Below are positions 173-49,647 of a stretch of DNA of 64,000 nucleotides, piece after piece. The stretch lies in contig JAUCBJ010000321.1 in the NCBI GenBank assembly GCA_032718475.1, positions 1 to 64,000 of the forward strand, written 5' to 3'. Made by a program: the position numbers and the translations under genes. Position 1 is the stretch's first letter. Every line of letters begins with the position of its first letter. The notes under the pieces were generated by a model. It was not told the origin of the DNA. It saw only the letters and a program-made list of their open reading frames with translations, and ran no database searches. This stretch comes from Nemertoderma westbladi (taxonomy: Eukaryota > Animalia > Xenacoelomorpha).

Positions 173-3100
173 TTACGTTATGGAGTCCCTAGATGTTTGA
201 AGGATTAGGGAGGTGGTCGTGGGAAGAGAATCTTGCCTTCCACAGTTTCCGGAGAGTCCTCCATTCCCTTCCGATAAACACAAACGACCGACTGGGTGAT
301 TGAGTCGCTGCATCCTGAATACAATTCCAGGTTTCCTCTTCGTCCTGGAATAGTGACGATAGAAACATCGCTCAAAGTATATGACGGCGTCACAAAGCCG
401 ATTCCAGGAGCTATAGTGGTCCGTCGCTCTCTGCAGGAGAGGTGAGAGTCCCTGCGAGACGTCTGATGTTCCAGAGCTCCAATCGCTCTCTCTGATCTTC
501 ATGAAGGATCCACTCGCGGTGGGGAGGCCCAGATCCACGGCGTCGTCCCTGGCAACATGTAATACCGACAGATCTATCCCGGGTTCAAATAACTCCGATC
601 CACCCGTCCGGGTTTCAGGTTCAACTTTCTCCGCTCCCTTGGCTGGTCTAATCTCAGTCGGAGTAAGATGGGGAGGCCATTCATTCTCCTTACTCAGGAA
701 GTCGGGTTCACCTAACCAGTCTATAGTATCTGTCAGTTCTTGAGGAGTTGCTCCTCTGGAAGCGATGTCCGTTGGATTAAACTTCTTGGGGCAATATCTC
801 CATTGATCTACATTGGAGCTAAGATTGTCATTATCTGAGGAGTGTGGTGTTCCCTCAGCTGGGTCGTCTCCCTCACTAGTATCATCTTCCCATTCACTCA
901 CCTGGCAGACGCGATCTTGAAGCAGTCTTTCCCTGAGCGTTCTACGGGAAGGTCCAGTAAGGTACCAACCTACTCTAGTTCTTACCGCATATGTCTGTAG
1001 TGGCTGCGGTTGAGCAGGTCGTTTCTCTAATGTCTCCAGCGCCTCATGCGCGTTTTGGCCGATGAGTATTTGCACTCCAGGATAATCAGTCTGGAATCGA
1101 GGTATGTTAAGATGTTGGATGCTCTCATCCTCGTCCCAATTATAAAGGTCTGCTTGAGTAGTAGCGAAGTTCTTTATAGCCACCATTTTCACTGACCTTA
1201 TGCTATGTTCTCCTAGTTCGTCCTGGGGGGTGGACAACGCGCCTACATAATAATCAGCTGTTACTGTAGATTTCCAAACTTGCATGATTCCTGACATGTT
1301 TAGCTTGGTTCGGAACTTGGGTTGTCCAGCAAAGATGACTTCGGCTAGTTCTTTATCGATGAATGTTCCTGTGCTACCGGAGTCCAGGAGGGCGTTCACT
1401 ATATAGCTCTTCTGAGGTCCGTGGACCCGTAACTGGACTACAGGAAATTCTCGGATTCCTATATTGGAAGTTGGCGCTTTCCAAGATGGTTGTTGATCTG
1501 AAGTAGTTAGGGTGAGGTCGCTGTCTGTGTCTTTTTCATACACGAGTGCTCGATACACTGCGGTGGTGTTTATTAGGTAACAGGATTCGTTTTGGTCGGA
1601 GAACTCGTCCATATAGAATCCTTCCATCTCAGATTGATCAGTGTCGTTCACATCACTGAATTGGACATGTAGTTCGGACTCACTTACCTGACTCGGGCTG
1701 TTTCGTTCGAATTCCGTGTGCAACAAGATATGATGTTTTGCGCCGCACTGTGCACACCTTGCGTCGGAGTTACAGGTTCGCCGTTGGTGTCCTCGTCTGA
1801 GGCAATTATAACACAACCGCTTATCCCACATGACTTCACGTCTATCCTCGAGTGATTTCCTCAGGAATTTATCACACGCATTTAAACGGTGGGGCCCGTC
1901 GCACAGCACACATTTCGGCTTGATGTTACTTACTTTAACCTGTGCTATGTGGTGCACACTTGTTCTTTCCTCGGGCTTTCTCACCTGAATTCTTTTAGGA
2001 GACGTAGGAAGGGTTTTTTGTACCGGTTCCCTTCTGTCATTGGGTCGAGACTTGGATTTACTTACCTGATCTTTAGGCATTTTATTGACATAATAAGATC
2101 TGTCAGTGTCTTTCCCGCTGTCCTCTCCTTGAGAAGTTTGGCTTTCACCATCGTCGGTATAACATACTGGTGTTACCCTTCTCCTAGAAACGGGTTTCTC
2201 ACTTACCTTGTTTTCCAATGTCTTCTCTCTGGACTGCCTTAGGAGCTGTAATTTCACCTCGCTATCCAAGAATGACATGAGATCAGTCATGGTAGGGTCT
2301 CGTTGTTGTTGTTCCATCATATATAACACTTTCTTATCCCAGCGTGTACCTACTCCACCCTTCGGTAAAGCAGAAGCCACTGCTCTAATAACCATAGCAC
2401 TCTGATACTCATGAGACTTACCTAGCCAATCTAATTGTCTGCAGATCTCCTGAATTTCATCGGAAAACTCTATAATCCCGCTGCTAATAAACTTTCGGGG
2501 TGCTACCAACTTTGCATACAAATACCCAGCTATGTTATTCCTATTACCATACCTGATGTTTAGTGTATCCCAAACTTGTCTTAATCCGTCTGGATGTCCA
2601 ATAAACCTTAACGCCATTAACTTGGGAGATCCTTCCAAGCACTCGATGAGGTATCTAAGTTTTTCTCCATTAGATAGTACGGAGTTCTGTATGTTATCTT
2701 TGTAATATTCATTAAAAGGTAACCATTTCATCTCATCTCCATTGAACTTAACGATCTCTCCCACCTTTACCGCTTGCCGGGCTTCGGTTCTAGCCATTTG
2801 ACGCGTAAAACTTTCTTGGGCCATCATGCTATTTAATATCGAGTTATCGGCATATAAATTTCTCGGATTATGATCAGTTCTATATGGAATATCATTATCA
2901 ACAGGTCTATAATTACCCTTAATAGGGTTCACTATAGGAGTTTCTACTTCGCTAGCAGTATATATGCGTGTAGGCTCCACACCTTGCGCATGCGATACTT
3001 CAGACCTAACAGGTTGACACATTGTTACAGAGGGTGGTGGTATACCCCTTTGTGTATTTACTAATTTATCGCGTTCTAGCGCGATACTTTGCTGCACTTC

Positions 3101-5008
3101 TTGCAACTCTAGCCTACTTTCCCTTACTGTGCCCTTGAATTGCTGGACAGTCTCCTGCATCTGCCCGAGCAGGATATCCATCCCCCGCCGTCTCTCGTCC
3201 ACCCATTCGACCGCCGAAGCGGGAGTCGCCAACGTTGTAGCGGGCGGACGAGGGACAACGGGCGACAAATTATGAATATTTCGCTCGGGGTCCAGGACCT
3301 GAACTGTCTCTGGGGCAGTTCTACGGGGCACAGGTAGCTTAGTGCTATGCAGAGGGAATTTAGAAGTAGTTTCAGGGAGCACAGGTGTGTCTATCACCGA
3401 AGGGGTGGCTTCAAGAACAGGCCTAATTATTTCAGGCTCATCTACTATAGTAGGGAGTCTTTCTATTGTAATTATTTGGTCTGTGGGCTCTGTACTACCT
3501 AAGTTGGTGTTATTTAGTTGCCTTCTAACAGCTGGAGGCAAATCAGGCAATTTCTGACGGTGGAATGTTCTTTTACTTCTGCTTAGGCGAGATCGATTTC
3601 TTCCGCCTTCAGTGTAGGTGGTATCGCCTTCCTCAGATGATGTATACCCCTGTCTCTTGGGAGTAGATCGACTCATCATCTGCATATTGCTCGCTGTTAA
3701 CTGTTTATTGAAGTTGTCTTGCTTCTCTTGAAGAATTTCCAACTCTAGTTGGGTTGCCTCTTCCGATGCCCTCCATTCTGCTTCTACCACTGCCTCTGCT
3801 ATTGCCAGTGCCGCTTTTCTTTCGGTTTCTGCCGCTGCCTCTGCTACTGCCGCTTTCCTTTCCGCTTCGGCCTCTGCCATTGCCAGTGCCGCCTTTCTTT
3901 CCGCTTCTGCCTCTGCCACTGCTGCTGCCACTGCCGCTGCCTTTCTATCGTCTATACGTTTTTTCTTTAATTGTTCTTCTTGGTCTCTAGCGATGCGGAG
4001 TTGTTCATCGAATTTAGCTTGGTTTGCCGCTAACCTATCCACATCAATTGCATCCAACACACGCTGGGCTCCTTCACTATTAGGGCTAAGCCCATCTAGT
4101 CTTCTCCGCAACTCTTCATCACCTACGAAACGCTGATAGTCTGACAGATAGATGTCAATGGCATCCCTCTTATGCGGTTTCTCTGCTGTCGCTTCACTTT
4201 CCACTTGGGAAAAAGTAGCGTCTGTTGATTCTCCATGGGTTGAGCGCTCCTCTAACTGAGCTTTCCACTGAGCTGCTCCTTGAACCTGGCGACTCACCCG
4301 TTGAAACCAAGTCTTTACGGCAACTTGCAATGACGTGTCTTGTTTTCTTTTAGAAGCCTCCTCAAAGGCGGATAAGATTAGCCTAATCCGCAGAACTCTT
4401 TCTCTAACTTGATAAAGCAGCGATCCCTGCTCTTGAGGTCCTTGAGGTTGTTGAAAAAGTTGCTTTTCTATTCGCTCCATAGAGCTGAAGAATCCCTGTG
4501 CGTATCCGGCTGCGGACCTCTTCCATACAGCTGGATCGATGGTTTCCTTGGCTACTCCCATCCGGTGTATGTCTTCCCAGGCAGCTTCTGATAAATCAAA
4601 CGGGAATCCGGGTCCGGGGAAGTTCCATTGCGACTCGACAATAGACTTCAGTTCTTCACTAGTGTATCCCGCGTAGCTATCTCTAGTTGACTGCTGACTT
4701 CTCGCCCAATCGATCTGGTGTTCTTCCACCGCGATCAATAACCCAGCGAGCACGGCTGCAGGAAGGATGAGAAGGGGATCCGTATAAACCGCATCCGTCA
4801 TCTCTGCTCCGCTCTCGGGTGTCAGCTCTACAGTATCCTCACTACTGGAGCTGCTGGGCCGCTGAGGAATAAGTTCTTGACTAGTGGGTTGTTGCTGTTC
4901 CGCTGCCTTTTGGTCCCGCTTGACCTGAGCTCGGGTGCCTATGATAGACCTACGATGTTGGACTAGCCTAGGTTCTGTTATTACTACTGGAGGGATGACC
5001 TTCCTCAC
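173..5008 (-). CDS. BEL/Pao Gag-protease polyprotein lacking RT, most of RNase H and recognisable integrase
   Basis: DUF1759-like Gag core (KFNGDEMKWLPF...EKLRYLIECLEG); three knuckles CVLCDGPHRLNAC, CYNCLRRGHQRRTC, CAQCGAKHHILLH; protease ALLDSGS...ILIGQN...GWYLTGP; RNase H tail QWRYCPKKFNPTDIASRG; linker YSSWNRL. True start uncertain (first ATG at 4801). Confidence 0.9.
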   Translation of the reverse strand: MRKVIPPVVITEPRLVQHRRSIIGTRAQVKRDQKAAEQQQPTSQELIPQRPSSSSSEDTVELTPESGAEMTDAVYTDPLLILPAAVLAGLLIAVEEHQIDWARSQQSTRDSYAGYTSEELKSIVESQWNFPGPGFPFDLSEAAWEDIHRMGVAKETIDPAVWKRSAAGYAQGFFSSMERIEKQLFQQPQGPQEQGSLLYQVRERVLRIRLILSAFEEASKRKQDTSLQVAVKTWFQRVSRQVQGAAQWKAQLEERSTHGESTDATFSQVESEATAEKPHKRDAIDIYLSDYQRFVGDEELRRRLDGLSPNSEGAQRVLDAIDVDRLAANQAKFDEQLRIARDQEEQLKKKRIDDRKAAAVAAAVAEAEAERKAALAMAEAEAERKAAVAEAAAETERKAALAIAEAVVEAEWRASEEATQLELEILQEKQDNFNKQLTASNMQMMSRSTPKRQGYTSSEEGDTTYTEGGRNRSRLSRSKRTFHRQKLPDLPPAVRRQLNNTNLGSTEPTDQIITIERLPTIVDEPEIIRPVLEATPSVIDTPVLPETTSKFPLHSTKLPVPRRTAPETVQVLDPERNIHNLSPVVPRPPATTLATPASAVEWVDERRRGMDILLGQMQETVQQFKGTVRESRLELQEVQQSIALERDKLVNTQRGIPPPSVTMCQPVRSEVSHAQGVEPTRIYTASEVETPIVNPIKGNYRPVDNDIPYRTDHNPRNLYADNSILNSMMAQESFTRQMARTEARQAVKVGEIVKFNGDEMKWLPFNEYYKDNIQNSVLSNGEKLRYLIECLEGSPKLMALRFIGHPDGLRQVWDTLNIRYGNRNNIAGYLYAKLVAPRKFISSGIIEFSDEIQEICRQLDWLGKSHEYQSAMVIRAVASALPKGGVGTRWDKKVLYMMEQQQRDPTMTDLMSFLDSEVKLQLLRQSREKTLENKVSEKPVSRRRVTPVCYTDDGESQTSQGEDSGKDTDRSYYVNKMPKDQVSKSKSRPNDRREPVQKTLPTSPKRIQVRKPEERTSVHHIAQVKVSNIKPKCVLCDGPHRLNACDKFLRKSLEDRREVMWDKRLCYNCLRRGHQRRTCNSDARCAQCGAKHHILLHTEFERNSPSQVSESELHVQFSDVNDTDQSEMEGFYMDEFSDQNESCYLINTTAVYRALVYEKDTDSDLTLTTSDQQPSWKAPTSNIGIREFPVVQLRVHGPQKSYIVNALLDSGSTGTFIDKELAEVIFAGQPKFRTKLNMSGIMQVWKSTVTADYYVGALSTPQDELGEHSIRSVKMVAIKNFATTQADLYNWDEDESIQHLNIPRFQTDYPGVQILIGQNAHEALETLEKRPAQPQPLQTYAVRTRVGWYLTGPSRRTLRERLLQDRVCQVSEWEDDTSEGDDPAEGTPHSSDNDNLSSNVDQWRYCPKKFNPTDIASRGATPQELTDTIDWLGEPDFLSKENEWPPHLTPTEIRPAKGAEKVEPETRTGGSELFEPGIDLSVLHVARDDAVDLGLPTASGSFMKIRESDWSSGTSDVSQGLSPLLQRATDHYSSWNRLCDAVIYFERCFYRHYSRTKRKPGIVFRMQRLNHPVGRLCLSEGNGGLSGNCGRQDSLPTTTSLILQTSRDSIT

Positions 5009-6493
5009 AGTGGGAGGTGAACTGAACTTACGACCAGACGGTTGTACGTCTCAATCTGAGTTGCAGATAGTTACATCTAATAAACTGTCTGACAGGTTAT
5101 GCTTAGTATCAGACATGACTAGGTATGTACAGTTGAATGCCTACTGCTATATTACAGTCTAAGCAAGTCTAGTAACTCAGTATGAACTGCTAGCCTAGTA
5201 ATTAATTACCGTTACTGCTACTCAGTGTAGCGTGATATATATATAATATATTAGAATACCGGTATACTTATAGTATATATAACTATATAAGTATTATTAC
5301 AGACTAGGTTTATCACAGAATACCGGTATAATTTTAGCACAAATATATATAATATATAATAGGCCTATCGGAATACCGGTATACAGCTTACTGTTTGTAG
5401 TATATATAATTCTAGAATAGAATTAATTACAAGTACCGGTATAATTTCAGCCTAGATTTATTGAAATAAAGATAATAGGCCTATCGTAAATACCGGTATA
5501 TCAATTATTTTGGAATAATTGAATTTCTGAACTTTAGGGTTACTTGGTTACTTTAACTTACTTTTTTACCGTTATTTGAGCAGTAGTCCAACTGATATTG
5601 AGACCTAATTGTTATATGGTAGGCCTACTATTTATAAATCGTTAGATTTGATTTATAATATATATATACCCGTTTTAATGGGTTTTGTCAATGTTTGAAA
5701 TAAATGTTATTATTTCTGGGGTAATCACTACACAAAGCGGTACGCTTTTAGTGAAGTGTTACGTATAGGACACTAAAACAAATAATTCTAATTTACCTAA
5801 GTTACTTAATACTACAAATTACGTACAATTCGGGTGAGATTACAATCTCTAAATAAACACAAAAATTTACAAAAAACACAAAACACGAATTTTTAGGGTA
5901 ATTTTACAAGAAGTCTACAAACCAGCCTAACAAAGGGTTAGATAACCGGTTATTACAACGGACAGGGTACTACGGTATTTGAAATAATAAGTAGTAGTAA
6001 ATACACTGCGTTGTCTAGATAGGAAAATACCACCGCCTGACGACCTATAGCCGTATCGCTATAGGTTCTACGTTATGTATCACGGAGTGTTCCTACCTAG
6101 AAGTTAATAGAGCTAATCGAATGTGCCTATCAACCACTTTACAACACAAATATAATGCCTACACTAATTACTTCGGAAAGTACTGTACACTAAACCCTAA
6201 ATTAGGTACGAGTACTTGTACAACAGATAATCAGTAGTTAAATATACTTGAACAGCTAAAAGAACCACGGCATCTGCTGGAGTGACCGATGCACAAAATC
6301 ACCAGTCTTTACCTACGCCGAGCAGCCCGTGTAGTACCGGGGTTAATTTAACTATAGCGGTATGTATAACAAACACAATTACTGTAGGAACAAACTTAGG
6401 GAATGAATGTTGCGGATAATCGCATAAACTCTGAATAATAAATATTACGCTACGCGTACAAACTACTCAAACAAAATACAGACCGAACACTGA

Positions 6494-7010
6494 CAGACTA
6501 CTATCAAGCCTAAACAAACTACGGTATATGCAGACTCCGAAATGATTAGGGAGTATGCGCTCTAACCCAGTAGTGCGACTTATTCTTTAGTTGGGGGTTT
6601 ACCTTACAGCGTTCGCTGCCCCTACTGCCTAACCGTACTTAATCGGACAGATGATCTACACACGCGGCAATCCGTTCAGACCTAATAACAGCCAGACAAC
6701 TATCCAGCCTACAAATTATCTAAATAAAATTATACGCTACCTGTACAGACTTACACAAACAAAGTACAGACCAAACGATGGCAGACTACTCTCAAGCCTA
6801 AATAAACTACAGGACATGCAGACTCCGAAATGATTAGGGAGTATGCGCTCTAACCCAGTAGTGCGACTTATTCTTTAGTTGGGGGTTTACCTTACAGCGT
6901 TCGCTGCCCCTACTGCCTAATCGTACTTAATCGGACAGGTGATCTACACACACTGCAATTCGTTCGGACCTAACAGCAATCAGACAACAGCTCAGCCTAC
7001 TAATCGTCTG
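6494..7010. repeat. Tandem duplication (period ~288 bp) in the retrotransposon leader
   Basis: gactccgaaatgattagggagtatgcgctctaacccag...gatctacaca occurs at 6533 and 6821 with a near-identical core. Confidence 0.9.
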
Positions 7011-7327
7011 TACAATCTGATCAGGCTTACACGCCTTCTGTTCAATACTGGCCTACAAATAAATAAAACTTGACAGAAATAAGTAAAATCTCAATAAAAA
7101 ATCAGGGCGGCCGTTCCCTGATTAAGTACTAAGACCTACCGGTATACAACTATCAAAATCGAATAATACTGCTGTACCTGTACTGCTGTAGGTACCGGTC
7201 CGGGTGGTTAGGTAGTCAGGCCTACTGGTACCGGTTCTGGCAGTTGGGCCTACTGACCTACAGATGTACCGGTTGACCGGTACTTTCAACTTTATTGCTT
7301 ACTGCAATAAGAAGCTATATCCTTTAA

Positions 7328-8469
7328 TGTTCGCGCTTTCAGACCTTTGGCAGTTTAACCCACCAAATTAAGATGTCTTCTAGATATTAAATCGGTTTTT
7401 AGTCTATGACAAGTATTTGATTCACTACACTAGTCGAAACCAATCTGTGCGCGATCATTCACTATATACTCTATATAGTACTATATAATCTCTGACAATA
7501 TTATTCACCTTCGGTAATATTAACAGTTCCTTTAGGACGTGGCGCTTTATCTATATAAACAGAGTTATGACTTAAACTACTCACAACGATATGGCTTAAT
7601 TATAATTCACATATATGGCGCATTCTTTAGGAATTGCTTCTTTAACAGACTCACTCATACACAATGCTGCACAATACTGCACACTAATCTGCCAATCTTC
7701 ACTGATTTTAGTCACATATAAAAGGAACACAGACTGACTCATATAGGGTCTATCAAATAACATTAGATTCACTTCAAACCACTTTAACATAAGTCACAAT
7801 CGTTTATCTGTAACCCTTCTCTCTTACCTTCGGTATATCAAGAATATTGGGTTTCGGGGTTATTTATCGTTATTCCAAATATAATTATTCATCAACCATA
7901 TTATGAAGAACTGACGGTAAATAGCAGTATAAAAATAACACTGAACACTGATTGTTATGAGTTTGCAATGTTTCAGCAGTCAGTATGTATGATCAGTTAG
8001 CAGTGATTCCATGAGTTAAAGGATATATGCCCTTTATAATTAAACCTACTAGTGTAAGACTAAAAACTGAAACACGGAGGTGCCAAAAGCCGGTTCTTAG
8101 GCTCTGAGCAAAAACATAACACTGAACTACTGAGTTTCTGTATATACCTCCAACACAGAGATAACAAACGCTCTGATTGGTCAACCTGAACAACGAGAGA
8201 ACAGAGAAACAAAGAAACGTCGACGTGGCAATATCAGCTGCTAGCCGTCGTCATGGTAGCGACACTGTTTTCAAGAGTATCGAGCTTTTACGTCACGGAA
8301 TTACGGATTATGTCCTCTAAAGTACAAATACAGAAGAAATAGCTTTTATGTCCGCTAAAACACCAGTACAGCAAGGACCCGGCCTTTTTATGCCTGGTAA
8401 ACCAACTACAGAGTATTTTACGGGAAAAATAAGGAAAAATAACCGGACAATTCAGCAAAAGCTTTTACA
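7328..8469 (-). repeat. 5' LTR of element A (~1.14 kb)
   Basis: On the minus strand it starts TGTAAAAGCTTTT (8469) and ends GCGCGAACA (7328); colinear with 11842-13035 (shared blocks ccaatcagagcg, gcgccacgtcctaaaggaactgttaatatt, ggcagattagtgtgcagtattgtgc). Confidence 0.85.
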
Positions 8470-11400
8470 CAATTAATCGGTGGTGCCCCGGTAGTGGGTT
8501 CGTTAGACATTCGCCCATCCTACTTAGCCGGATTGGGATGCGGGCATCTAATATCCCCATTTGATCCTTACAATCGTCCAGGATTAAACCCGATGCAACC
8601 CGCCACGGAAGTCGAGGAGAGCGTTATAAGAAACGCTTTAGACGCTATTCGACAGAAGATCGGAAAGGGAACACAAGATTGTTTAGAGAAACGTAAATTA
8701 CAACAACAAGTCCAATCGGTGAAGGAGTTAGCCTTGCCACAGTTCGATAGAGAAATCCAAAACCTCGAGGAGGACATCGAGCTTGGACGCACTTATTCTC
8801 TACAAGAGTTTCTAGATGAACGCTTACAGAGACAAGCGGAGGAAAATCTACTCGAGGAGAAACACACTAAATTGGACGAGAGAGAAGAAGCCGCTTTAGC
8901 CCAACCCGAAGCTCAAATCCTTATGACAGATCTCTACTCTAAAACCGTCCGTCATCCCTCGATGGTTCCACATTTCGGAGACAAACTCTTCGCGACGATA
9001 CAACCCCAACCGGTTGATATCAGTACAGGATCGCAAAATCTTATCGCTGATGCCCCTATGTTACAGCGTCCGCCAATCGAGGCTGCTCGTGTTGACGGTA
9101 TACTCGTTGAACCTCCGGACAATCGAGCGGATCTTGTCCGTTGTATGGTACATGATGTCAACATACGCGCTAGACCTTTACAGAACTCGTTTTATGGGAT
9201 CAAAGACCACCCTTATTACGTTAATCTGACTCAATATTATATGGTAAAACCAGAAGACCCGACGCATAATTTAAAGTTTCTACCACTAATAAATCCTCTA
9301 GACGTTGTCGAACTCGAACAATTGCAGAAACATCTGGATCAGTTAGTAAAGGTAAACTCATTCAGAAAACCATATAACATTTCTCGAATCGAGAAGGATA
9401 TAGAACCTCCTTATAATCTCGATGGATTTATTAAAACTCGATTAGTCCATTGGAATCTAGATGTATTATTTGAAGAAGAGAAAATACAAAGATATGGAAA
9501 TGTGGAGACGTATACCACTCGGCACATGAAGTATAGTGATCTCCCAGACGCTAACCAATGCGCCACCTTGTGGCATCCAGTAGGGATGACCCTAGAGAAC
9601 GCCACCAAAGAGTGGAATGAAACTCTTAATGTCATTGAGATGTATGGAGTTGTCACCTACGATAATGAAGGTAGCGTTCCGGTCAGAGAACTAGGAACTA
9701 CGCGCATGATCCACATACGCGGATTAGCTGGTTCTACCCCACGTGTTTACTCGAGCGTGTTCCGACGTGATTGATTATTCCTTTGAAACTCTCACCGAAA
9801 CGCAAAAGAATCTCTGACATGGACAATTCGAACTCGCGCAGCGTTACGTCATTGACACCGAACGCAAACCGGCCATGGGTATCGATGGATCGATGTTACC
9901 CCAGCCCATACTCGAGATGTTGTTCAACGAAAGAATCCTTAAAATCGGCTCAGCTGTTTATGGAGATCTCCAAAACGACTTTCGGAATATGGAAAATATC
10001 CCATATCCTTTCGTGGATACGCAGCTGATTGCTCCCTGGGCAGAAGGTCGAGGTTTCTTTCGCACCATGTATGCTCATACGTCCAGCAACATTACAAAGG
10101 TGCAACGAACTTCCATCGGACATCTTGCCTTTCAGGAATACGGATGGAATTTCAAAGTCGGAAATCCCATCAACTATCAACAAGTATACGGAGACCATTA
10201 TTCTCGATTATACTTTGATGGACCATTGACCGCACCTGGCGCCGTGTATAGCTTCATGAGTGTTCCACTCCGTCCCTCCTTAGTTATCTACACGATCTTT
10301 GAAAACACCGCACTTTGCGGTTGGCTAGCCGATGTGTGCAGTCGTACTATACGCGCCCATCCATTAATACTTGGGACCAAACTCGCTAAGCTAGATGAAC
10401 ATAATAAATTCATCCGCTTCGAATGTTTCTGGCGATTTTTAACCCCGTTCCGCAACGTGGATAGCCAATTTAAAGACCGCGCTTTGACCAAGCTCAGCCT
10501 AAGAAACTCAGCTGCAGAGAAGTTAGATAGCGCTGGATTTGCCATTTTCAAAGAGATTTGTATATCGAACTTGCACTCCTCTGTTATACAAAGACATCGA
10601 ATCCCCACAGGTTATTCTGTCGTGGAAATTCAGACAATAGGTCCACTTGAAGAGACAGACACGCCCACCTCAGCTATGCACTGGGAAGACGAACCAATAT
10701 GCCTAGAATCTGAGGAGATTCAGCCTATCGCGCCCCGGAACAGCGACAACGATTACATCCTAGAATGGTATCAAGGTCCACAGTGTCTCACTGCGTACGA
10801 TTATCGCCATGCCAACTATGTTTCTCGGCAACGTTGTCGGTTATGCGCATCGAGAGACCATGTTACGCCCATGGACACAAACGTCCGCTGTTCCTATTTC
10901 CACGAACAACCGGCGATGGAAATTTATTGCGCATATTGCAGACTCAATAACTTGCTTATTTTTGCGGTTTGCCCTCAATTTATGACTCAATGTCACCATT
11001 GTCAACTAAAGGGACACGCCAGTTTCGATTGCCCTTTTAATCACGATTTGGAAAGCGTAGATGAAATGATCACACTACGTTACATCAGAGCTTGGGAAGC
11101 GAACGCTGATTTACATTGTGATTCGCACCATCGCTATTATCCTGGACGCGCTTACGAAGGAGTTTATGCGTTCCATCCTTATCTATTCGCTTCTGTCGAA
11201 CAGAAATCACGCATATCGAGTTACGAACTACTGAAGCGTGTCGGAGAATGTATTTCAACCAAATTCGTACGCAAATTTCTCAGGAGTGTTAATCCTAGCG
11301 ACCTTCATTCCTATAACTTAATCAATTTTATCCGTCAGGATCTGGACTATGGAGACTTATTTGTTAACTCACACCCCGAGTTACAGGAAGTATATCGACG

Positions 11401-11764
11401 GCCTTACGAATACCGAGCCCGCGAACGCGAGTTGGAAAGAACCATTAAACCCAGGAAGTTTCTGACTGCCTATGGTCCACCCACGGCTCTCGTTCAGACC
11501 ACTCGTAAAGGACCCGTAAGAGCGGCCGTCCTAAAAAGCGTTCTAAAGGCCGTTAGACCCCTCTCCCCCGACGTTGATGTCAACCAACCCGGCACTTCGA
11601 CTGGCGGATACACCGACCATAATCCTACACCCTCTGATGCAATCATATTGCACCCTTCACCCAGGAGTTATAGCCCTCCTTGTAAAGTGGCTCGCCCCAA
11701 AGAGAAAAAGACTCTGGCCAGCTTTAAAAAACTGCGTAAACGCCGTCCGCGCAAGAAAGACTAA
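8470..11764 (+). pseudogene. Retrotransposon accessory ORF (>=~1090 codons): coiled coil + DEDDy 3'-5' exonuclease-like domain + CCHC-type zinc knuckles; split by a frameshift (~9737-9740) and a TGA (9815-9817)
   Basis: ORFs 8494-9774 and 9875-11764 join if one C is removed from cccc at 9737-9740 and the TGA is read as CGA. Motifs VVTYDNEG, LPQPILEMLFNERILKIGSAVYGD, FVDTQLIA, SIGHLAFQEYG, PLRPSLVIYTIFE; CHHCQLKGHASFDC. Confidence 0.7.
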
Positions 11765-11828
11765 CTGTTTAGAGTATTTACGTATATTAGAAATTGTGAT
11801 TTTGTATATTTATAGACTTGAATCCCAT

Positions 11829-11841
11829 TTTCTGGGAGCGG
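11829..11841 (+). other. Short polypurine tract preceding the 3' LTR
   Basis: tttctgggagcgg abuts TGT at 11842. Confidence 0.6.
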
Positions 11842-13035
11842 TGTAAAAGCTTTTGTGGATATAATCAGTCCCCTTGCCCGCAAAGTACCGTGTGGGTGTT
11901 TTAACTGACATAAAAGTTGTTCTTCTATATGTGTGCTTTGGAGGACATGGCAAGACACAAAACCCGCAATGCGTCAAATCCTCTAGCACAGTGTAGCCTT
12001 GATGATTCAGATTACGACATCTAACAGCTGGTTGCTGGTATGGAAACGGCCATTGGACATATGGTTATTTGTTCAGCTTAACAGCCAATCAGAGCGATTT
12101 TTACTTTAGATGTGGAGATATTCTACAGATCGTACTAGGCGTGTTCAGTCTTAGAGTGTTACAGTTGTGTTGTTTCTATCTAGGCCAAGAACACCGGCTC
12201 TGGAGTCAATTGGTTTCAGACTTTAGAAGAAACATTAGTAGGCTTAGATTATAGAACGTATAACTGTTATCAACCCAATCAGTTCAGTCTTACATTATCG
12301 GTTCAGTGCACGGTGCAAGTCACTGCAACATACATTATTATACTGCTATTTACTGTTGTCATTATTTGTATCAGTTGGTTGAATATTATTACTTGGAGAA
12401 CATCAATAAATAACCCAAATTTCCCAATTTTCTTGATACACTACAGGTTAGAGAGACAGGTTACATATAGCGATTGCGACTTATATTATCGTGGTTTGTA
12501 GTGAATTTAATGCTATTTGATAGGCACTACATGAGTCAATTGCTGTTCTCTTTATGTATGATAAAATTCATTGACGGTCGGCAGATTAGTGTGCAGTATT
12601 GTGCGGTACCGGTAGTGTGCATGATTGTGGCTGATAACTAAGCATTTCCTAAAGAATGCGCCTCATACGTGAATCATAAGCCTTACCTTCTTACCGTTGT
12701 GTTTAGTATAAGTCATATCTCTGTTTACCTAGATAGAGCGCCACGTCCTAAAGGAACTGTTAATATTTCCCGAAAGTGAATAATATTCGTCAGAAATTAT
12801 TTATTAACGATCAATCGAATAATACAGTAAGCTTACACTGCAATAAAATCTAAGCCCTCCGAATCCAGTCTCCCGGGTATATCCAGCGGGTGAATGGACG
12901 CGCACTAGGCTGGCTTCGGCTAATGTTGTGTTTATTGGTATTAAATACTTGTCATATGTTAAAGTATATTTATAAACCAAAAGACATATAAATTTTGGCA
13001 GGTTAAACTGCTAAAGGTCTTCAAAAGCGCGTACA
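11842..13035 (+). repeat. 3' LTR of element B (~1.19 kb)
   Basis: TGTAAAAGCTTTT...GCGCGTACA; CCAAT box near 12085, TCAGTC initiator-like motifs, AATAAA near 12405 and 12842; diverged homologue of 7328-8469. Confidence 0.85.
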
Positions 13036-13366
13036 ATATATATCGCCACACTCATTGCACTAATAAATTCATAAATAGTAGACTTATACAGTATGTACTG
13101 TACTTTTGTAGTCCTAAATAAATTTCGGGACGGGACGGACGTCCCTAAATTAATTTCTGGACGTCCATAAAGTACCGGTAATTTCGGGACGTCCATAAAT
13201 TATTCAAGAATAAAAAATAGAGATATAATTAAGGCAGAATTCTGCCACAGTAAGTTACATCATTATTACTGTATAATTTAATTTAGTGAGTTATTTACTA
13301 CTGCTGTACTGTACGTAATGTAACTTAATTGTGTACTATACAGTACAATATACTGTATTGTATATG

Positions 13367-15492: not shown

Positions 15493-15751
15493 GCAGGTCT
15501 GCTGTCTCGGACTAGCTGTTCGAGAACTCGAGACGGGGGGGGGGGGGGGGGCTGGACGCAAATCCTATCTCCCATCTCGGCGAAGAAATATTTCGTCTCA
15601 ATGTTAAATGACCAATTTATGGAGAGAAGCAGGTTACAGCGGAACTTTATTCTAACTAAAAATATAAACAAAAGTCAACGAAATCAGCTGTTACCCCCCC
15701 CCCCCCCCCCCCCTCCCACTATCTGTAAAATTTGCCCTCTTCTGTTTCCAG

Positions 15752-15970
15752 ATGCATCTGACATTGAGTTTGACTTGGAATCAGTTGGAGGTTTCTCGAG
15801 AGAAGCTACTCTAGAAGCATTCCAGATCTCTGGGTTGCCTAGCGATCCCAACGCAGACCTATATCCTCCTTCTAGGGTCACTGACCTCAGTGTTACAGCG
15901 GTACATTCGGCGAATAGTTCATTCGAGTTGAGTTGGACCGCTCCCGGAGACGATATGGATTCGGGAACCG
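15752..15970 (+). CDS. CLCA: CLCA exon (start of FN3-like domain)
   Basis: ttccag|AT GCA...; DLYPPSRVTDL...LSWTAPGDDMDSGT hallmark; phase matches the previous exon; ends ACC G|gttag. Confidence 0.92.
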
Positions 15971-16956
15971 GTTAGATCCCTTTTAGAAGTACAGTAATCC
16001 TCGTAATGGTATGTTATGTCGTACGGTAAGATAGGCCTAGGCCCACACAACGTGATAATTTATCGCAATTCGTACTTTAGTTAGTTCTATAATTCCTATA
16101 TTGTCGAGGCGTTTATGGGAGGCTAACCTGAAAATGCCTCGCAAGCCGTTATGTAGTTCTTATGAGTGTTATCAAAGCCCCGGGATACCTGCCGCATAGC
16201 AGGAACACTCACGAAAGTGTGGGGGTATATATATATTATAAGTGACATAATATATATATATGATAATATATTACAAATTGCAAATGACTAGGTAAAATAT
16301 CGCAGGCCACTGTAACTAATGTGGCTCGCTGGGCTATAAAATCGATGTAAATAACCTGAGATGTTATCAAGGTTAAGCCTATCGTGTCGAGATGGACACC
16401 GATTATATACGGATACACAATGCTCAGTAAAAACCGAACAGCCAATAAGACGCAGGAATACCGGCTTCGGTAGTTACCAATGAGAGTCCAGTAATACCAC
16501 AACTGTTGTTAGGCAACAATATAAACAACTTTATGGGCTATTCAATACGTACGAAGCACAAATATTATATGCACTGAAACCGAATAATAATCTGATAAAA
16601 ATATAAGATTTCTGTATACAGTTAGCATTGGCAGCAAAATATATTAATTTATGTTTATACAGAAAATTGGTTCGTTAATTCGTCATTCATTTTAATGTAA
16701 TAGTCGCAATTGAATTAGACCTACTCACTTTTTCACTCACTTTTTCAACCAATAAACAACTAACAGTAGGCCTACTGAAACTGAATATAACGCACTATGC
16801 TGTATATGGATATGGATATGGATAGGCTTACATGCTGTACTGTAATGTACAGTACATACTTTATAAAAATAATAATTGACCAGCTTTAACACTTATTCAC
16901 CCAAATTAATCAATTAACTTGAGGTAATTAGCAGACAGGGTTAGAGATTTTTACGG

Positions 16957-23834: not shown

Positions 23835-26722
23835 GGTAGGTGCTAATGATGCATGAGCAACAATGAGCAACAATGAGCAACAACGAGCAACAATGAGCAA
23901 CAACGAGCAACAATGAGCAACAATGAGCAACAACGAGCAACAACGAGCAACAATGAGCAACAACGAGCAACAATGAGCAATACTAAAGTACAACAATGAG
24001 CAACAATGACCAACAATGAGCAACAATGACCAACAACGAGCAAAAATGAGCAACAACGAGCAACAATGAGCAACAACGAGCAACAATGAGCAATAATAAA
24101 GTACAACAATGAGCAACAATGACCAACAATGAGCAACAATGACCAACAACGAGCAACAATGAACAATAATGACCAACAATGAGCAACAATGACCAACAAC
24201 GAACGAGCAACAATGAGCAACAACGAGCAACAATGAGCAACAACGAGCAACAATGAGCAACAACGAGCAACAATGAGCAACAACGAACAACAATGAGCAA
24301 TAATAAAGTACAACAATAAGCAACAATGACCAACAACGAGAAACAATGACCAACAACGAGCAACAATGAACAACAATGACCAACAATGAGCAACAATGAC
24401 CAACAACGAGCAACAATGAACAACAATGAGCAACAATGAGCAACAATGAGCAACAATGACCAACAACGAGCAACAATGAACAACAATGACCAACAATGAG
24501 CAACAATGACCAACAACGAGCAACAATGAACAACAATGAGCAACAATGACCAACAACGAGCAACAATGAGCAACAACGAGCAACAATGAGCAATAATAAA
24601 GTACAACAACGAGCAAAAATGAGCAACAATGACCAACAATGAGCAACAACGAGCAACAATGAGCAACAACGAGCAACAATGAGCAATAATAAAGTACAAC
24701 AATGAGCAACAATGACCAACAATGAGGAACAATGAGCAACAACGAGCAACAATGAGCAACAACGAGCAACAACGAGCAACAATGTGCAACAACGAGCAAC
24801 AATGAGCATTAATAAAGTACAACAATGAGCAACAATGACCAACAATGAGCAACAATTTAGAAATAGTAAGTTACAATAATGTATTTTATATTAATTATAT
24901 TAATTATTTGTAATTACAATATTAATTAATTATATATAAATATATAATATATATATTAATAGCATTCGTAAACTATGTACATCATTTTAGATAATCGGGC
25001 CTATCAAAAGTATCATTTTAGATGTTTTAGACAATGTGTGTAGTTGACTACTTGACTTCCAGGTTCTTCCAGGTCATACCAATACGATTCAAAGGAGGAA
25101 CTGGACTCCATGTGGATCCAGGGGAAGTCATTTTGACGTTGGTACTGTAAGTCTGTCATTTGAGGCGTAGGTCCTAATTCTAACATTGGCACAGTCACGA
25201 TTCGGGTACCTACAAATGTTATAGGTACAGAATACTACTGCCAGACTGTACTACATAAATTTTGTACTAAAAACTAACTGGGCAAAGTCTACGGAACAGA
25301 CCTTTTGCTAAATTGACAGAACCCGCTGACCGGACCCATTGCCATTTAAAGGCAGAAAGGAGCAGGCAGCAGATTAGTAAAGGACCGGATTACAGAGGCG
25401 TGTTCAGGTGTTGGCGTTGGTGGGAACCGAACCAAAACAATAAACGAAAGTTAAGACATGTTACAAGATTATGGGTCAGGTCACAAAAAGCTCAGGTAAT
25501 AAGGGTCCGGTCAATAATACACTAGTAAAATATAAATCAAATATAAATCTTCAACATATAAATAAAAATTTAATATACCTAAAGTAAATAACAAATCAAA
25601 TACAAAATAGGCTTGGCCTACCCCATCCCACAAGCTACAGTAGTCTGTAATATAGAACGCTAGGCAGACTTCAGGACTGCCAGGCAATCACGGTCACTGT
25701 CCAACTGTATAAAATACAAAATGAATGGGAGAATCTTTTAGGCTTGTTAAGCCAAGGAATGCCTGTTCACTACCATGGGTGATCTTCCACAGTAAACCCT
25801 TCCACTCTGTTTCCCAAGTTGCCTTGGTTCCAAAATAATAATACGAAAACCAGTTCACACTTCACAGTACCGTACATCAGACAGTCAGAACCAGATAATA
25901 GGTTGAGGTAAGTTTCACCGACACTACCCAAACAGAACAAGACTGATAGACTGAAATCAGGTAAACTGATAAATATTTGTAGGCCTACCGGTCCCGGTAT
26001 AGCAGTATTGTGCACCATCTTGATGACATTGCGGGTATGGAAGCATTTTTTATTAAGTTCTTGGTTGGGAATTTATTTCTCATATCATACTTATATATTC
26101 GGGATTACTGGAATACATTATACTGCATAAATATAATGAATGTATCTGTGTAATCTGTTTAGTGGTGTACTCTAGTTACTTTATTATAGTTACTGTTATT
26201 GTAGTTACTGCTACTTTATTGTAGTTATTTTTTTATCACTTTATTATTTTTGCTCATTGTTGCTCATCATTTTTTCTCGTTGTTGTACTTTATTATTGCT
26301 CGTTGTTGCTCATTGTTGCTCATTGTTGCTCGTTGTTGCTTATTGTTGCTCATTGTTGCTCGTTATTGGTCATTGTTGCTCATTGTTGTACTTTATTATT
26401 GCTCATTGTTGATCGTTGTTGCTCATCGTTGCTCATTGTTGCTCATTGTTGCTCGTTGTTGCTCATTGTTCCTCATTGTTGCTCATTGTTACTCATCGTT
26501 GTTGTACTTTATTATTGCTCATTGTTGCTCGTTGTTGCTCATTGCTGCTCATTGTTGCTCGTTGTTGCTCATTGTTGCTCATTGTTGCTCGTTGTTGCTC
26601 ATTGTTGCTCGTTGTTGCTCGTTGTTGGTCGTTGTTGCTCGTTGTTGCTCATTGTTGCTCGTTGTTGCTCATTGTTGCTCGTTGTTGGTCCTTGTTGCTC
26701 GTTGTGCATTTTAGCACCTACC
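23835..26722. mobile_element. Foldback-like element with inverted arms made of 10-bp repeats
   Basis: Termini ggtaggtgctaa / ttagcacctacc; (gagcaacaat/c)n at 23853-24856 and its complement at 26250-26707. Confidence 0.8.
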
Positions 26723-31877: not shown

Positions 31878-33365
31878 CGGAAATAAAAAGCGGGCCCGGA
31901 GCAACGTACAGTAATTGTGGAAAATCCGGGAGGCCCCCTTTATATTTTATGTGAAATAATTACTTGAATTACTTACACCAATTGTCAAAAAACTGTTTTA
32001 TTAACATTGGAGTGAAGGGGATGTCCCTTCCCTGCTTTGCGCCCTCACTCAACTCGGCTATCCGAGTCAGTTGTCAGCTTGATATGCAGGAAGCCAGATT
32101 TCAGATAACCAATAGACTTATAGAATCAACTCATCTTTACATCAAACTGGTCCACCAATTGTTAAATTATTTTAATGTTCTGGAATGAATATTTACGAAG
32201 TTGTCTCGTTTTAATCAACATGAAGGGATCCGAATAACAAGGTGATGGTTTAACTACTGTAGTCTAAGTTAAGAAAATTGCCCAGGGGGCCATTTCCGGG
32301 CCTCCTGGGCATCTCCCGGGCCCGGAGATTTTGCCCCCCTCCTCTCGGGAGCGCTGCCCCCCCCCCCCCCCCCCCCTCCCCACTATCTGCCAAAAATATA
32401 TAAAGCAACGTGTCTTTCTATTATTTGAATTTCATTGGCTATGGAGTAGTATGGAACCTTTTAGGATGATCTACCTATGGATGGAGGGAAATTTGAAAAA
32501 GTAGGTAAAGAGCTAAATCACTCCTACCATAATATAGTGATACAGCTGGATAGGCCTAGCAGCCCTGCAGTCTCAGAATCTCTAGCCTAGCATACATACA
32601 CTAGTACACATAACTACAGACGAGGACCGGTATGTTTTCATATCTATATTTACCACACATCCATACATCTGATCTATGTACAATTTGTTATTTATAAAAT
32701 ATACAATTTTATTATACAATATACAATTTTGTTATAAAATATACAATTTTATTATACAATATACAATTTGGTTCTACTTCATGTCAGATAGGGAGTGGGG
32801 GGGGGGGGGGGGGGGGGGGCTGGTCTCAATAAAAATTCATCCCTCACCAGGGGAAATTCGACGCAAATAATAGCTGTTTACTCTCAAAAATAAAACTGTA
32901 ACCTGTTCTATTGTAGGTATTTAGTTTATTGTTTTGGTTAAAATAACGTGCCACTCTAACCTGCTCCTTTTCCTAAATTGAGAATTTAACATTGAGGCGG
33001 GATATTAATTCGCCAAGATGGGATTTGCGTCCAGTCACCCCCTCCCCTGTCTCACATCAGTACTGGCACATTTAACCAAAACAATATAGGCCCTACTAAA
33101 CTTTACTTGTTGATATGCGACCAATTTGCGGTGGAGAACACTTTTTAGTCAATGTGCGCCACTATTCGCGTTATATGAATTTCAGTGTTTGACAGAGGAC
33201 ATAGATACAAAGATTACAGTATTTATTTATAATAATATTATAATTTTTTCTTATAATACACAGCAGTAATTATTGATTTATTATTGTAATATTATGTTGA
33301 CTGCGTACCACCGGTACCTCAGCGCTCGGTTGATGATGCACTGATACAGTTTGCTAGTTTTGGAT

Positions 33366-34061
33366 ATGACTTACAACGCTTTTGTCGCCAGTCGTAAAAC
33401 ATGGTTGGGGTCCGTACTAAACAACGGAATGGGCCGATATGTTCCGCAGTGTTCTAGAATAACTTTACGATTCAGTCAGAACGGCGGTGGTAGTAAAGGA
33501 ATTCGTGATTACATACAGAACGAAATGGTTGAGTTTGCTAAAGCGAATCCTTCTATTGTGGTTTATCTAGACCCCCGGTTTACCCACTGTCCCCTAATAA
33601 TCGGGGAATTTATGAACGGCACGACAAGAGAAATACTCGCTAATAAGTTTACACTCAAACACGTTGCAGAAACGCTTTACTTAATGCGAGGGATGTCTGG
33701 ACTAGAAGTTCTACGAACAATTAAACCTAATCGATCAAACTCCCCGTCTATACAGGGACAGTGGCATCCGTTCGCGTGGCTACCGGTACCGGGGGGGCGG
33801 GCTGACTGGCCGGAGTTGGATGTCGGCCCGTCCCGCTCCGTGGAACGAGTTGGGATATCTCCGGACCACCTCGGGGCTGCAGTAGAGACCCCGCTTCGCT
33901 CCAATCCCGAGAACGTCTCCAAGGGATCCAGGGATCGCAGTAGGGATTGGGATCCGGCCAGTAGAGATCCAGATTATGCCGTTAATGTGATTCACACAAA
34001 GAGGACGACAGACACGAAACAGTATTGGAGGAAAATAGGAAAGACAAAGAGGATGAAGTAA
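33366..34061 (+). CDS. MRPL43: Mitochondrial ribosomal protein L43 (mL43), intronless
   Basis: NGMGRYVPQCSRITLRFS..GGGSKGIRDYI...FAKANPSIVVY...GEFMNG...PSIQGQWHPF; ATG at 33366. Confidence 0.93.
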   Translation: MTYNAFVASRKTWLGSVLNNGMGRYVPQCSRITLRFSQNGGGSKGIRDYIQNEMVEFAKANPSIVVYLDPRFTHCPLIIGEFMNGTTREILANKFTLKHVAETLYLMRGMSGLEVLRTIKPNRSNSPSIQGQWHPFAWLPVPGGRADWPELDVGPSRSVERVGISPDHLGAAVETPLRSNPENVSKGSRDRSRDWDPASRDPDYAVNVIHTKRTTDTKQYWRKIGKTKRMK

Positions 34062-38160: not shown

Positions 38161-39953
38161 GGGACTGGTGCAATATCTCAGGAGATACTTTTTTTAAAGG
38201 CTTGTAACTAAAGATTGAAATAAAAAATAGGGGGGGGGGGATGTGTAATAGAATTACTGTACGACACTATATTCCGGGGCATGGCGTTGTTGTATGTATA
38301 AAACGATACAATTATCCCAGTTCAATAACTTCTCAAATTAGCACGAAATTCCGTAACGATCTGGTTTGAAATTCCGTAACGATACCAATAAAGCTGTAAC
38401 TCCAAATTGCTCAGTAAATCTGCTTAATCTTTACCATGACGGGCATTTTGAACATCTCTTCTTACGCGCAATATGTTTAGTTAAAATTCAAAACTCAATA
38501 ATTCGCAGAACTTTCACTTTAAAAAAATTCCAAAAACCTCTTGTCTTTTTTTGTTTAATTCCGTGTGTAATTCTTATCAGAATAATTTTTCGCCAAGGAA
38601 AGGAACAGGTTGCAGAGACAGGTGGGGGAAGTTATGAACGCCCATGTGAAGAATACCAGGATTTCACTTTTCGGTCGACTTTTTATTGGAATTTTATATA
38701 TGAAGATTTTATATTTTTTTAAATTTATCTTTATTAAGTGTTTTATTGAGCTTATTACTGTCGTATCTGTACATACTGTATACTAATTAGTTTATTGTTT
38801 TGGTTAGATTTCAGCCCTTCTGGCCTTCTGTAAACTTTGTTTTTGGTGAAAACCTGGTATTCTTCACATGGGGGTACCTTCAAGGTGAAATATAACGGCA
38901 GAAAGTCTGGTATTCTTCACATGGGCCGTTATGAACATTGTATAGTTCAATTGAATTCGAAATCTCCAAGAAAAATGCTTTATGCCAATGTGGCTTCATT
39001 GGTTAGCGACTCTGGTGAAGCCTAAAACGCGTATAGCGCTCGATCAACCAGCGACCCAGTGACGTGCTTCCTCATTATTTACATTTCTGAACAAAATGTT
39101 ATAACATAGTTTTTAAGCCATGCCAATAATATTAATATCTACTGTATCAAGGCCTAACTCCTTTGTCTTGACTATGTGGTAAATATATAAGTTATATCGG
39201 GTCAGGTCTCAGGTGTATTGCGAACAGTCTGGTTAGAGTTTCTTAATTGGATGGAAATTAAGTAGATCTCGGAGGGGAATGATTACTTGTTTTAAATACT
39301 TCGTCAGCTGATTTAATACGTACTGCCAAAGTCAATGTTCGTTGCCTGGCACCATATACAACTGTCCGCTAAATCAACTATTCTGATAACATAGGCATAC
39401 AGTGTACTGCTGTAGGCCTAATATTGTACCCGGTATCGGTAACGCCATGGCCAAGGTACTACTGCTGTACTCTAGTTGTACCCTAGTACCCAAGCATGTA
39501 TGTATAATATTGATAGATGTTAGGCCCTACAACTACAGACAGCAGTTATTACAGCCGTAATAGTTAATTAAATCTAAATTACAACAAATTGAGCAGCAAG
39601 AACAGTAGTTTAGAGATCAGTTACAGCAGTACGGTAGCGGTGGGTAGGTCTACGCCTCGCATACAGTAAATGCACGTCATTCATCACTAACCCAGAATTT
39701 AAAGGCCCTTTTAAGTAAACCTTTGAGGTTTGCGATATTGATTTAGTTCCACCACAATACTACCGGTACACGTGTATGTCTGAATTTATTCACCAACGAT
39801 CAACGACTAACGACACTGTTCAGCAATCTGTATTTATAGTTCAGTAGTTCACTTGCTCGTTTTAAGTAGCCGGCAACATTGTGGCCCACTACCGTAGTGT
39901 AGCGGCGCTAGTTTACGCGAAATTGTTATACTCTCTATCTGTTCATTATATTT

Positions 39954-40715
39954 ATGGCGTCAATTAACCCGCTTTCCAACCCAAAAGGCGTCCAGCTGCT
40001 ATGCGAACTCTGTAAGAAACCAGCTTACCTACAATGCACGCGGTGTCGAGTTGCGTACTACTGTAGCTCAGAACACCAAAGGATTGACTATGTCGGCATC
40101 CACGAGAAGATATGCCAGTTGCTGATCCCGCTCCGACAGACAGGAGAGCCTTTCCTACAATCGGAGGAAGAGAGAGAGAACCGCAGACTCGCGTTGCTTA
40201 CCCGCAAACAGCATATGATCGACCTTACGCGAACCACAGGTCAGAAACTCCTGTTCCAGGGATCCTTCACTGAGGCTGTCCCGGCAGCTCTACAGTCGCT
40301 TGCGTTCAGCATCGACGTCTACGGACTGACTAGCGTCGAGTTGGTTCCTTCCTACCTGATCCTCGGTGAGGCGTCTATCGGCCTGGGACGGCTGGAACAG
40401 GCCGAGGAGTATCTCTCTCAGGCCCAGTGGACCGTCCTAAAATCTATCGACTGCGGGAACTTCTTTAAATCCCGTCTCTACCGCATTCTCGGTCTCCTCT
40501 ACTCAACCAAGGGGGATTGCGACGAGGCGCTTAGGAACTTTGCCGACGACGTCTTCCACGCTTCAGAGGAATTTGGTACCGACGATATTCGCACATCCGG
40601 TGGATATTACCATATGGCAAATGTGTTCTGGAAGTTGGAACAACCGGAAACCGCAAACAGTTTGTATCAACACGTTACTGAAATTTGGGCTGGTCATTTA
40701 CGTCGAATGGTAAAG
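39954..40715 (+). CDS. ZMYND12: ZMYND12 exon 1 (MYND finger + TPR-like repeats)
   Basis: INPLSNPKG..LLCELCKKPAYLQCTRCRVAYYC..EHQRID..GIHEKICQLLIPLR; AVPAALQSL; ELVPSYLILGEASIGLG; donor at 40716 (or 40710, same frame). Confidence 0.93.
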
Positions 40716-40805
40716 GTTGGTCAATTAATATTAGAGAGTAGAGGAATCCGGATGAGATTTACAAACTTCCATTGTATTTATTTTCCCAATTTTCTACCTT
40801 GGCAG

Positions 40806-40976
40806 ATACGATTACAGACTCCTGCGACACCCAAAGGCGTCGGACCCGAAGGCTCCGACAATGGGGTTGAGAAGCAGTTGGATGAGATGCTTGACGAAGC
40901 CCAAGAGGCGGAGGCAGTGCAAGTTCTCTCCCACATATACAATCAGAGACGGGACGATACCGACACAAAAGCCGAT
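40806..40976 (+). CDS. ZMYND12: ZMYND12 exon 2
   Basis: cttggcag|ATA CGA; LDEAQEAEAVQVL conserved; ends GCC GAT|gttagt. Confidence 0.85.
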
Positions 40977-41490
40977 GTTAGTAACCCAAACTACTCAGTG
41001 AGGGGGGCTGTAAAGGGGCGAAACACAACTGAAAAGCACTGTCACTTTAACCTGCTTCTTTCCCACAATATTAAATATGAAACAAATGCACTACTGTAAT
41101 ACCTACGACTGTATAATAGACTTCATGTTTTAATTAAATTTAATGGAATATCTTATTTATTACTTTACTAATTCTCACACCGCGCGGGGGTGTATCTTTA
41201 CTTTAATTTAAAAAATTAACTAAAAAAATATCCTCGCACAAATGCAACTTTCGAACGCCAATATTCGCCCTATTTTGCAACGAAATCGAGATTGTGTTTC
41301 ATATTTGGAGTCCTTGCGTGGCCAGGATTCCGAACAATGACCTACTACAATATTATTATTATAATTAGTTATATTTTAATATATCTTAAAACTTATGAAT
41401 CCTTCGCTTCATTATCTGTATAAAGCGCTATTTTCTCTGTATTTTCATTATGTGGTTCGAATTCATTTTATTTTATTTATGCTGAACAGC

Positions 41491-46980: not shown

Positions 46981-47252
46981 AGAACAGATCAGAAAGTTAA
47001 TAAACCATATTTTTATCGCAAAAAAACATAATTTGATTTAAAATATCAATTATCATTGTAAATATTTGTATATATTGTAGAATGTTTATAACATTGTAAT
47101 TGTATTATATATTGTATAAATTGTTTATAATATTATAATTGTATATATTGAAATATATTTATTGTAATTATTTAACGAACCATCACCAAATTAATATTTA
47201 ACTTTTAAATTTATTGACATTATTTTAATTACTTTTGTTTCGCATTGCTTGT

Positions 47253-49644: not shown

Positions 49645-49647
49645 TAA

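Follow-up and report, generated by a model that had tools for sequence, protein, structure and literature searches.

RNase D-like DEDDy exonucleases with the motif DEED are encoded by the ORF3s of the rotifer Juno and Vesta LTR elements and of the Athena/Terminon retroelements, and in the available text of the report by Rodriguez, Kenefick and Arkhipova their activity is a prediction (PMC5408684); the available parts of two reviews repeat the rotifer DEDDy ORF3s (PMC6431247, PMC5718144). An LTR element with an exonuclease gene at its 3' end is an arrangement that we found described only for these rotifer retrotransposons, which belong to another group than the elements considered here. No exonuclease ORF of a BEL/Pao element was found in the open literature, while Repbase or supplements may contain one, and the available text of two further papers makes no mention of an exonuclease (PMC10309623, PMC2774666). 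The locus below is thereby less novel than was originally claimed, as the bdelloid ORF3s are already published (PMC5408684, in its available text). Two more distant systems are relevant. The Dada DNA transposons of Laccaria and Ectocarpus carry a DEDDy domain (PMC3706591), and the trypanosome RNase D TbRND is a 3'-5' exoribonuclease (PMC7797062) that, according to the available text, owes its RNA binding and the greater part of its cleavage to a C-terminal zinc-finger domain.

We analyzed a stretch of 64,000 nucleotides from Nemertoderma westbladi (contig JAUCBJ010000321.1, positions 1 to 64,000; hereafter the window), in which an LTR element (element A) carries a long ORF directly upstream of its 3' LTR and is interrupted by a second, oppositely oriented element (element B). 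Our preferred reading, which we hold with moderate confidence, takes the ORF as a disrupted copy of an additional 3' gene found in a high-copy LTR family that is likely related to BEL/Pao. The product predicted for its intact form is an RNA-trimming exonuclease of the RNase D type with zinc knuckles, acting most likely against host small or antisense RNAs. Like the ORF3s of bdelloid Juno and Vesta, it is a predicted RNase D-like gene in the env position at the 3' end of an LTR element, with an altered acidic motif. Juno and Vesta are gypsy-like, whereas the LTR kin here are BEL/Pao; the motif is D-E-D-E here and DEED there, as compared by description only; and the protein here exceeds 1,000 residues and has three knuckles and a basic tail. 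We therefore describe the gene as working like the rotifer ORF3s but class it apart from them, the separation being by description. TbRND shares the order of an exonuclease domain followed by several CCHC-type fingers and serves as a works-like model, not as a family assignment: unlike the protein of the window, it is cellular, trims U-rich guide RNAs and has four fingers (PMC7797062, available text). Dada is likewise a transposon bearing a DEDDy exonuclease, but it is a DNA transposon with the domain inside its transposase, where all four DEDD residues are kept (PMC3706591, available text). The features of the locus are as follows.

173–5050, minus strand: gag-protease ORF of element B, open for 1,625 codons, with DUF1759, three Cys motifs and an aspartyl protease motif
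7328–8469, minus strand: 5' LTR of element B (LTR B), running from 8469 to 7328, inserted head-to-head into the ORF of element A; a relative of LTR A
8470–11764, plus strand: accessory ORF of element A, about 1,097 codons (8470–11761), cut at its 5' side and with two breaks in this copy
9619–9672, plus strand: ExoI block, helix and strand with D-x-E (VVTYDNEG), D at 9661 and E at 9667
9735–9740, plus strand: frame shift in the accessory ORF of this copy, near 9737; fewer other copies differ here than at the stop
9815–9817, plus strand: in-frame stop, private to this copy; other copies differ at nearly all depth in four of four runs
9896–10024, plus strand: ExoII region and DTQ motif (LPQP..YGD at 9896–9967, with D at 9965; FVDTQ at 10010)
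10112, plus strand: SIGHL motif
10265–10306, plus strand: ExoIII-like block, PLRPSLVIYTIFEN, with Y at 10289 and E at 10301 for the usual D; aligned to the homolog P0002
10835–11032, plus strand: three Cys knuckle motifs, starting at 10835, 10928 and 10991
11726–11758, plus strand: basic C-terminal tail; the end of P0002 is also basic
11834–11841, plus strand: short purine-rich tract, directly 5' of LTR A
11842–13035, plus strand: 3' LTR of element A (LTR A), 1,194 bp, TG...CA

The accessory ORF lies in two plus-strand frames without stops (8443–9774 and 9818–11764), which we joined into one protein, with an X standing for each of the two breaks (frame shift near 9737, stop at 9815). The longest frame has 648 codons, whereas the longest in any of 300 mononucleotide shuffles had 270; the whole ORF is a single frame without introns. 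The original prediction had called a frame of at least 3.3 kb ahead of a polypurine tract and 3' LTR and had placed its two lesions near 9737 (frame shift) and at 9815 (stop); all of these were present, and every motif that it quoted was found at the position claimed. The frame abuts the first base of the minus-strand LTR B at 8469/8470, so bases 8443–8469 belong to the LTR and the ORF must start beyond its visible part. In other copies the ORF continues beyond 8469 with different letters (among the records listed, record 9 of sequencing run X3 and records 25 and 26 of run X5). The insertion of element B at 8469/8470 probably disabled this copy of the gene, with decay afterwards. The N-terminal part (8470–9200) has many charged, helix-forming residues and is a possible coiled coil, judging from its residues; it had no match in Pfam and no counterpart in P0002.

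The exonuclease was assessed with four sequence tests, each of them weak, which agree with one another and rest on the same residues. Using a block matrix made from 11 bacterial DEDDy proteins (without P0002), the ExoI block ranked first of 1,859 stop-free windows, with a score of 6.5 as opposed to 5.5 for the next, and D 9661 and E 9667 provide the D-x-E expected at the end of a strand that follows a helix. Taken alone, this block found nothing in hhalign, and its pairwise alignment to P0002 was not significant (247 of 2,000 shuffles reached the score). Two other placements of ExoI were rejected: VIDTE, a second D-x-E at 9854, has a lower block score and leaves a gap of only about 14 residues to the ExoII helix, and the MAFFT pairing of the P0002 ExoI with DYS near 9773 has no E at +2. 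In the alignment to the RNase D profile, the ExoII aspartate (D 9965) falls on the invariant D. In NCBIfam, the joined protein had only two matches, both to RNase D models (E 0.0085 and 0.068), the first of them over the ExoII region, and its score for TIGR01388 was 15.4 bits against a cut-off of 299. With an RNase D/PolA-type profile built from 11 bacterial domains, RNase D being the only DEDDy subfamily profiled, hhalign aligned 48 columns at E 8e-4; the probabilities for the exonuclease alignments were 25–77%. The HMM score also exceeded those of all 500 shuffles, most of which went unreported by the search.

A full HMMER search of 1.84 billion proteins with the joined protein returned two matches. 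P0002, an intact singleton of 648 residues from ENA that is encoded on a contig of 9,449 bases, matched at E 2.5e-6 (30% identity over 171 residues, plus the knuckles) and has the same layout of an exonuclease, three Cys knuckles and a basic tail. The other, P0003, was rejected as a homolog, being a repetitive acidic protein matched by composition. P0002 aligns to the RNase D/PolA profile over 143 columns, from ExoI to ExoIII (E 4.8e-5), with D62 and E64 at the RNase D ExoI and its ExoIII region at the RNase D ExoIII; PF01612 reached E 0.2 (11.9 bits against a cut-off of 23.6). Its neighbors in the Atlas are PF01612 clusters, with the best 10 family-bearing matches falling 10/10 in one family or clan. 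The top neighbor is a Euglenozoa cluster with PF01612 plus zf-CCHC, whose score of 0.86 is under the 0.9 mark and so a lead only, and the second is an EXD1-like cluster (0.77). Word-based searches found no homologs of the window ORF among 3,296 and 2,536 candidates, and the one with P0002 returned only P0002 itself. Related loci were absent from the viral contigs and prokaryote genomes searched, and one of 264 candidates in metagenome contigs was retained (L001; PF01612 E 0.05), which was picked by the motif itself and is weak support. In L001, a short fragment and possibly fungal, positions 644–1088 hold a DEDDy-like exonuclease in split form. PHROGs gave nothing useful, and tblastn of plasmids with P0002 and L001 gave chance-level matches.

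Together, these alignments make a DEDDy, RNase D-type exonuclease fold highly probable, to the extent that sequence comparison can indicate a fold. The DEDDy exonuclease as originally claimed is borne out by ExoI, ExoII, the RNase D profile and the alignments to P0002, but ExoIII has E for D, and the HMMER comparison with PF01612 proposed at the time gave no match in Pfam at E up to 10. In both the joined protein and P0002 the Y-x3-D of ExoIII is replaced by Y-x3-E, such that the four acids read D-E-D-E with the Y kept; the conserved W before ExoIII is absent in this copy, and the ExoI–ExoII spacing is about 30 residues longer in the joined protein than in P0002. Every profile score of the two proteins lies far below the curated family cut-offs. 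Because ExoIII lacks the Y-x3-D and the curated cut-offs are not reached, we class the accessory protein as DEDDy-like, set apart from the canonical DEDDy members. An HRDC domain, which follows the exonuclease in Rrp6 and in RNase D of that type, was matched in neither protein. Two AlphaFold models had pLDDT of 33 and 36, and Foldseek with the better of these low-confidence models gave 0 matches at E 0.001. A kinship to WRN-exo, Mut-7/Nibbler, EXD1 and Egalitarian had also been put forward. These proteins are of the same superfamily, and the LP..I..L..I.K.G block is one that we take to resemble theirs, but PDB sequence searches gave no exonuclease match and hence no direct match to them, and the best scores went to RNase D models, the one DEDDy subfamily for which there was a profile.

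The zinc knuckles and basic tail that had been read in the accessory protein were both located downstream of the exonuclease, and the knuckles match those of P0002. The third Cys motif is a full CCHC, while the second is without its His in this copy. The knuckle region matched zf-CCHC_3 of Pfam at E 0.028, under the cut-off, and its alignment score with P0002 beat 2,000 of 2,000 shuffles. The tail is a possible nuclear localization or RNA-binding segment by its composition. As the layout is that of TbRND, whose finger domain gives RNA binding and most of the activity, we read the gene as one for a knuckle-assisted RNA-trimming enzyme. The intact protein, a predicted RNase D-like 3'-5' exonuclease, would be expressed from the element's 3' end; its knuckles would hold single-stranded RNA for the nuclease, which would trim RNA ends, most likely those of host small or antisense RNAs that target the element. 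The purpose would most likely be to blunt small-RNA or antisense silencing of the element. Silencing RNAs are our best single guess for the substrate, a tentative one.

Catalysis in spite of the E at ExoIII is a prediction that we favor only slightly, and it is here that another reading of the fold has to be weighed. The protein may be a pseudo-nuclease adaptor that does not cut, with fold and knuckles binding RNA of the element or small-RNA complexes for RNA transport, packaging or the sequestering of piRNAs. EXD1 and Maelstrom are described as binding without cutting. The exchange of D for E in both proteins and the EXD1-like cluster second among the Atlas neighbors of P0002 would be consistent with such a role, and inactive DEDD derivatives are known in piRNA biology (PMC5408684, available text). 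However, both proteins, at an identity of only about 30%, have an acid at each of the four positions and retain the Y, which fits a preserved metal site better than decay, and we consider the adaptor possible but unlikely.

If the enzyme is active, it might instead serve replication, trimming the primer tRNA or a tRNA fragment, the 3' end of the genomic RNA, or the cDNA ends in the particle. RNase D works on tRNA ends. The usual primer site starts with TGG, which matches the CCA end of tRNAs; in the 30 bases after LTR B (7298–7327, minus strand) there is no TGG, so the primer site of element B looks non-canonical and a processed primer is conceivable. Processing of 3' ends has also been proposed for the rotifer ORFs in the available text of two papers (PMC5408684, PMC6431247). 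Against this, the site in question belongs to element B and not to element A. Non-canonical primer sites also occur in elements without an exonuclease gene, and to our knowledge most BEL/Pao elements lack one and replicate nonetheless, which leaves a replication nuclease distinctly unlikely. No tRNA genes were found in the window. The 5' leader of element B (5051–7327, about 2.3 kb) contains a 288-bp tandem duplication at 6430–7004, 88% identical.

The assignment of element A to BEL/Pao comes through element B. Comparison of the window to itself found an inverted LTR relative at 7325–7936, and the alignment extends to 8469. LTR B and LTR A are identical at 797 of 1,055 aligned bases (76%) and share the first 14 bases; identity over LTR positions 61–490 is 68%, and the alignment score of 596 compares with at most -176 in 30 shuffles. 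Element A has a TG...CA LTR after a purine tract, as BEL/Pao elements do; the far ends of A and B, where a 5-bp target duplication would be expected, lie outside the window. The element B ORF (5050 to 173, minus strand) matches DUF1759 at E 2.3e-11, which we take to be a marker of BEL gag. From this kinship to an element with a DUF1759 gag, it is likely that element A belongs to BEL/Pao as originally claimed; since the gag-pol of A lies outside the window, the label BEL stands for LTR kinship only. The further claim that the gene sits at the end of a BEL gag-pol did not hold within the 64-kb window: no gag-pol or integrase of element A was found upstream of the accessory ORF, which is cut by the oppositely oriented element B at 8469/8470, and the sole nearby gag-like ORF is element B's and not element A's.

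Element A might accordingly not be an autonomous BEL/Pao element, but a non-autonomous derivative like B or a member of another LTR lineage with this LTR, with the gene not behind a BEL integrase. No pol of A lies within the window, the LTR similarity is the sole link, and B shows that a 1,625-codon frame can stay open in an element without RT and integrase. Yet similarity across 1.1 kb of LTR with identical starts usually means one family, and a non-autonomous element would remain BEL-derived, so we give this reading a low probability. In the element B ORF, no RT, RNase H or integrase family was matched, and the RT, RNase H core and integrase core are absent. Directly after the gag and protease, the frame passes into short stretches left over from the RNase H and integrase ends. 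Depth shows no drop across the RT gap of element B, and, among the records listed, record 17 of run X4 (152–643, 4 differences) spans the integrase gap. Element B may be an abundant non-autonomous BEL family.

Returning to the accessory gene, other copies were surveyed in four sequencing runs (X1, X3, X4 and X5), from which contigs were placed on positions 7200–13200 at 80% likeness. There were 32,904 contig records in X1, 8,518 in X3, 159 in X4 and 540 in X5, with 30 of 30 bins covered in all four runs; the element A family is clearly abundant, though depth does not equal copy number. The stop at 9815 was missing from nearly all other copies in the four runs: 136,596 of 136,710 X1 depth differs from this copy there, as does nearly all depth in X3, X4 and X5. 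The frame shift near 9737 was not common to 14, 4, 1 and 1 contigs of X1, X3, X4 and X5, respectively, with 26,188/43,242, 11,946/20,362, 3/15 and 25/524 of the depth differing, a less complete signal than at the stop.

For selection, 40 of about 1,185 differences were listed, picked by support; 26 of them fall in the ORF, and 25 were classed, leaving out the stop. A change was called private to this copy if at least 98% of the X1 depth differs from it, a cut-off chosen after the rows were seen. Private changes were non-synonymous in 10 of 11 cases (1 synonymous), whereas 12 of the 14 changes mixed within the family were synonymous (2 non-synonymous); the Fisher p of 2e-4 for this split comes from 25 selected rows with a post hoc cut-off and is indicative. 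Mostly non-synonymous private changes along with mostly synonymous shared ones are the pattern of a defunct copy whose gene is otherwise preserved by selection. Purifying selection very likely acts on the accessory gene in the family, and the gene is apparently family-conserved. A captured host gene without function, or a chance frame, is very improbable: DEDDy plus CCHC proteins occur as cellular genes (e.g., TbRND), but this is one frame without introns, far longer than in shuffles and at very high copy number, its shared differences are biased to synonymous ones, and neither the word-based nor the full HMMER searches found a close cellular homolog.

The reading of an element-borne exonuclease would extend exonuclease capture from the rotifer Juno and Vesta to BEL/Pao, with another type of nuclease (no HRDC, D-E-D-E, three knuckles), and it suggests that an accessory protein for RNA trimming has been selected repeatedly among LTR retrotransposons. 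In its boldest form, a BEL/Pao lineage would have fixed, independently of the rotifer cases, an active D-E-D-E exonuclease with three knuckles that destroys small silencing RNAs of the host, an enzymatic counter to piRNA defense encoded by an animal retrotransposon itself. We regard this full version as quite improbable; if true, it would help account for the very high copy number of the family, and the exonuclease gene may travel even on derivatives without RT and integrase. With a family of very high copy number, a conserved gene and a clear biochemical prediction, the role of ORF3, in question since 2017, becomes testable as counter-silencing versus replication.

Elsewhere in the window, a Rad21/Rec8 C-terminal domain (60551–61351, minus strand; E 5e-13) and a mitochondrial L51/S25/CI-B8 domain (33345–34061; E 3e-7) are likely host exons by their domain content. 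An exon-like segment at 15700–15975 had no Pfam match and is presumably similar to the C-terminal region of CLCA chloride-channel regulators. Inverted 10-bp arrays lie at 23853–24856 and 26296–26705, and 41491–59819 contains four long arrays of satellites whose units measure 34, 49, 35 and 41 bp. A single-frame ORF at 39912–41099, in which zf-MYND matched at E 8e-8 and TPR repeats at E 9e-11, adjoins a satellite array.
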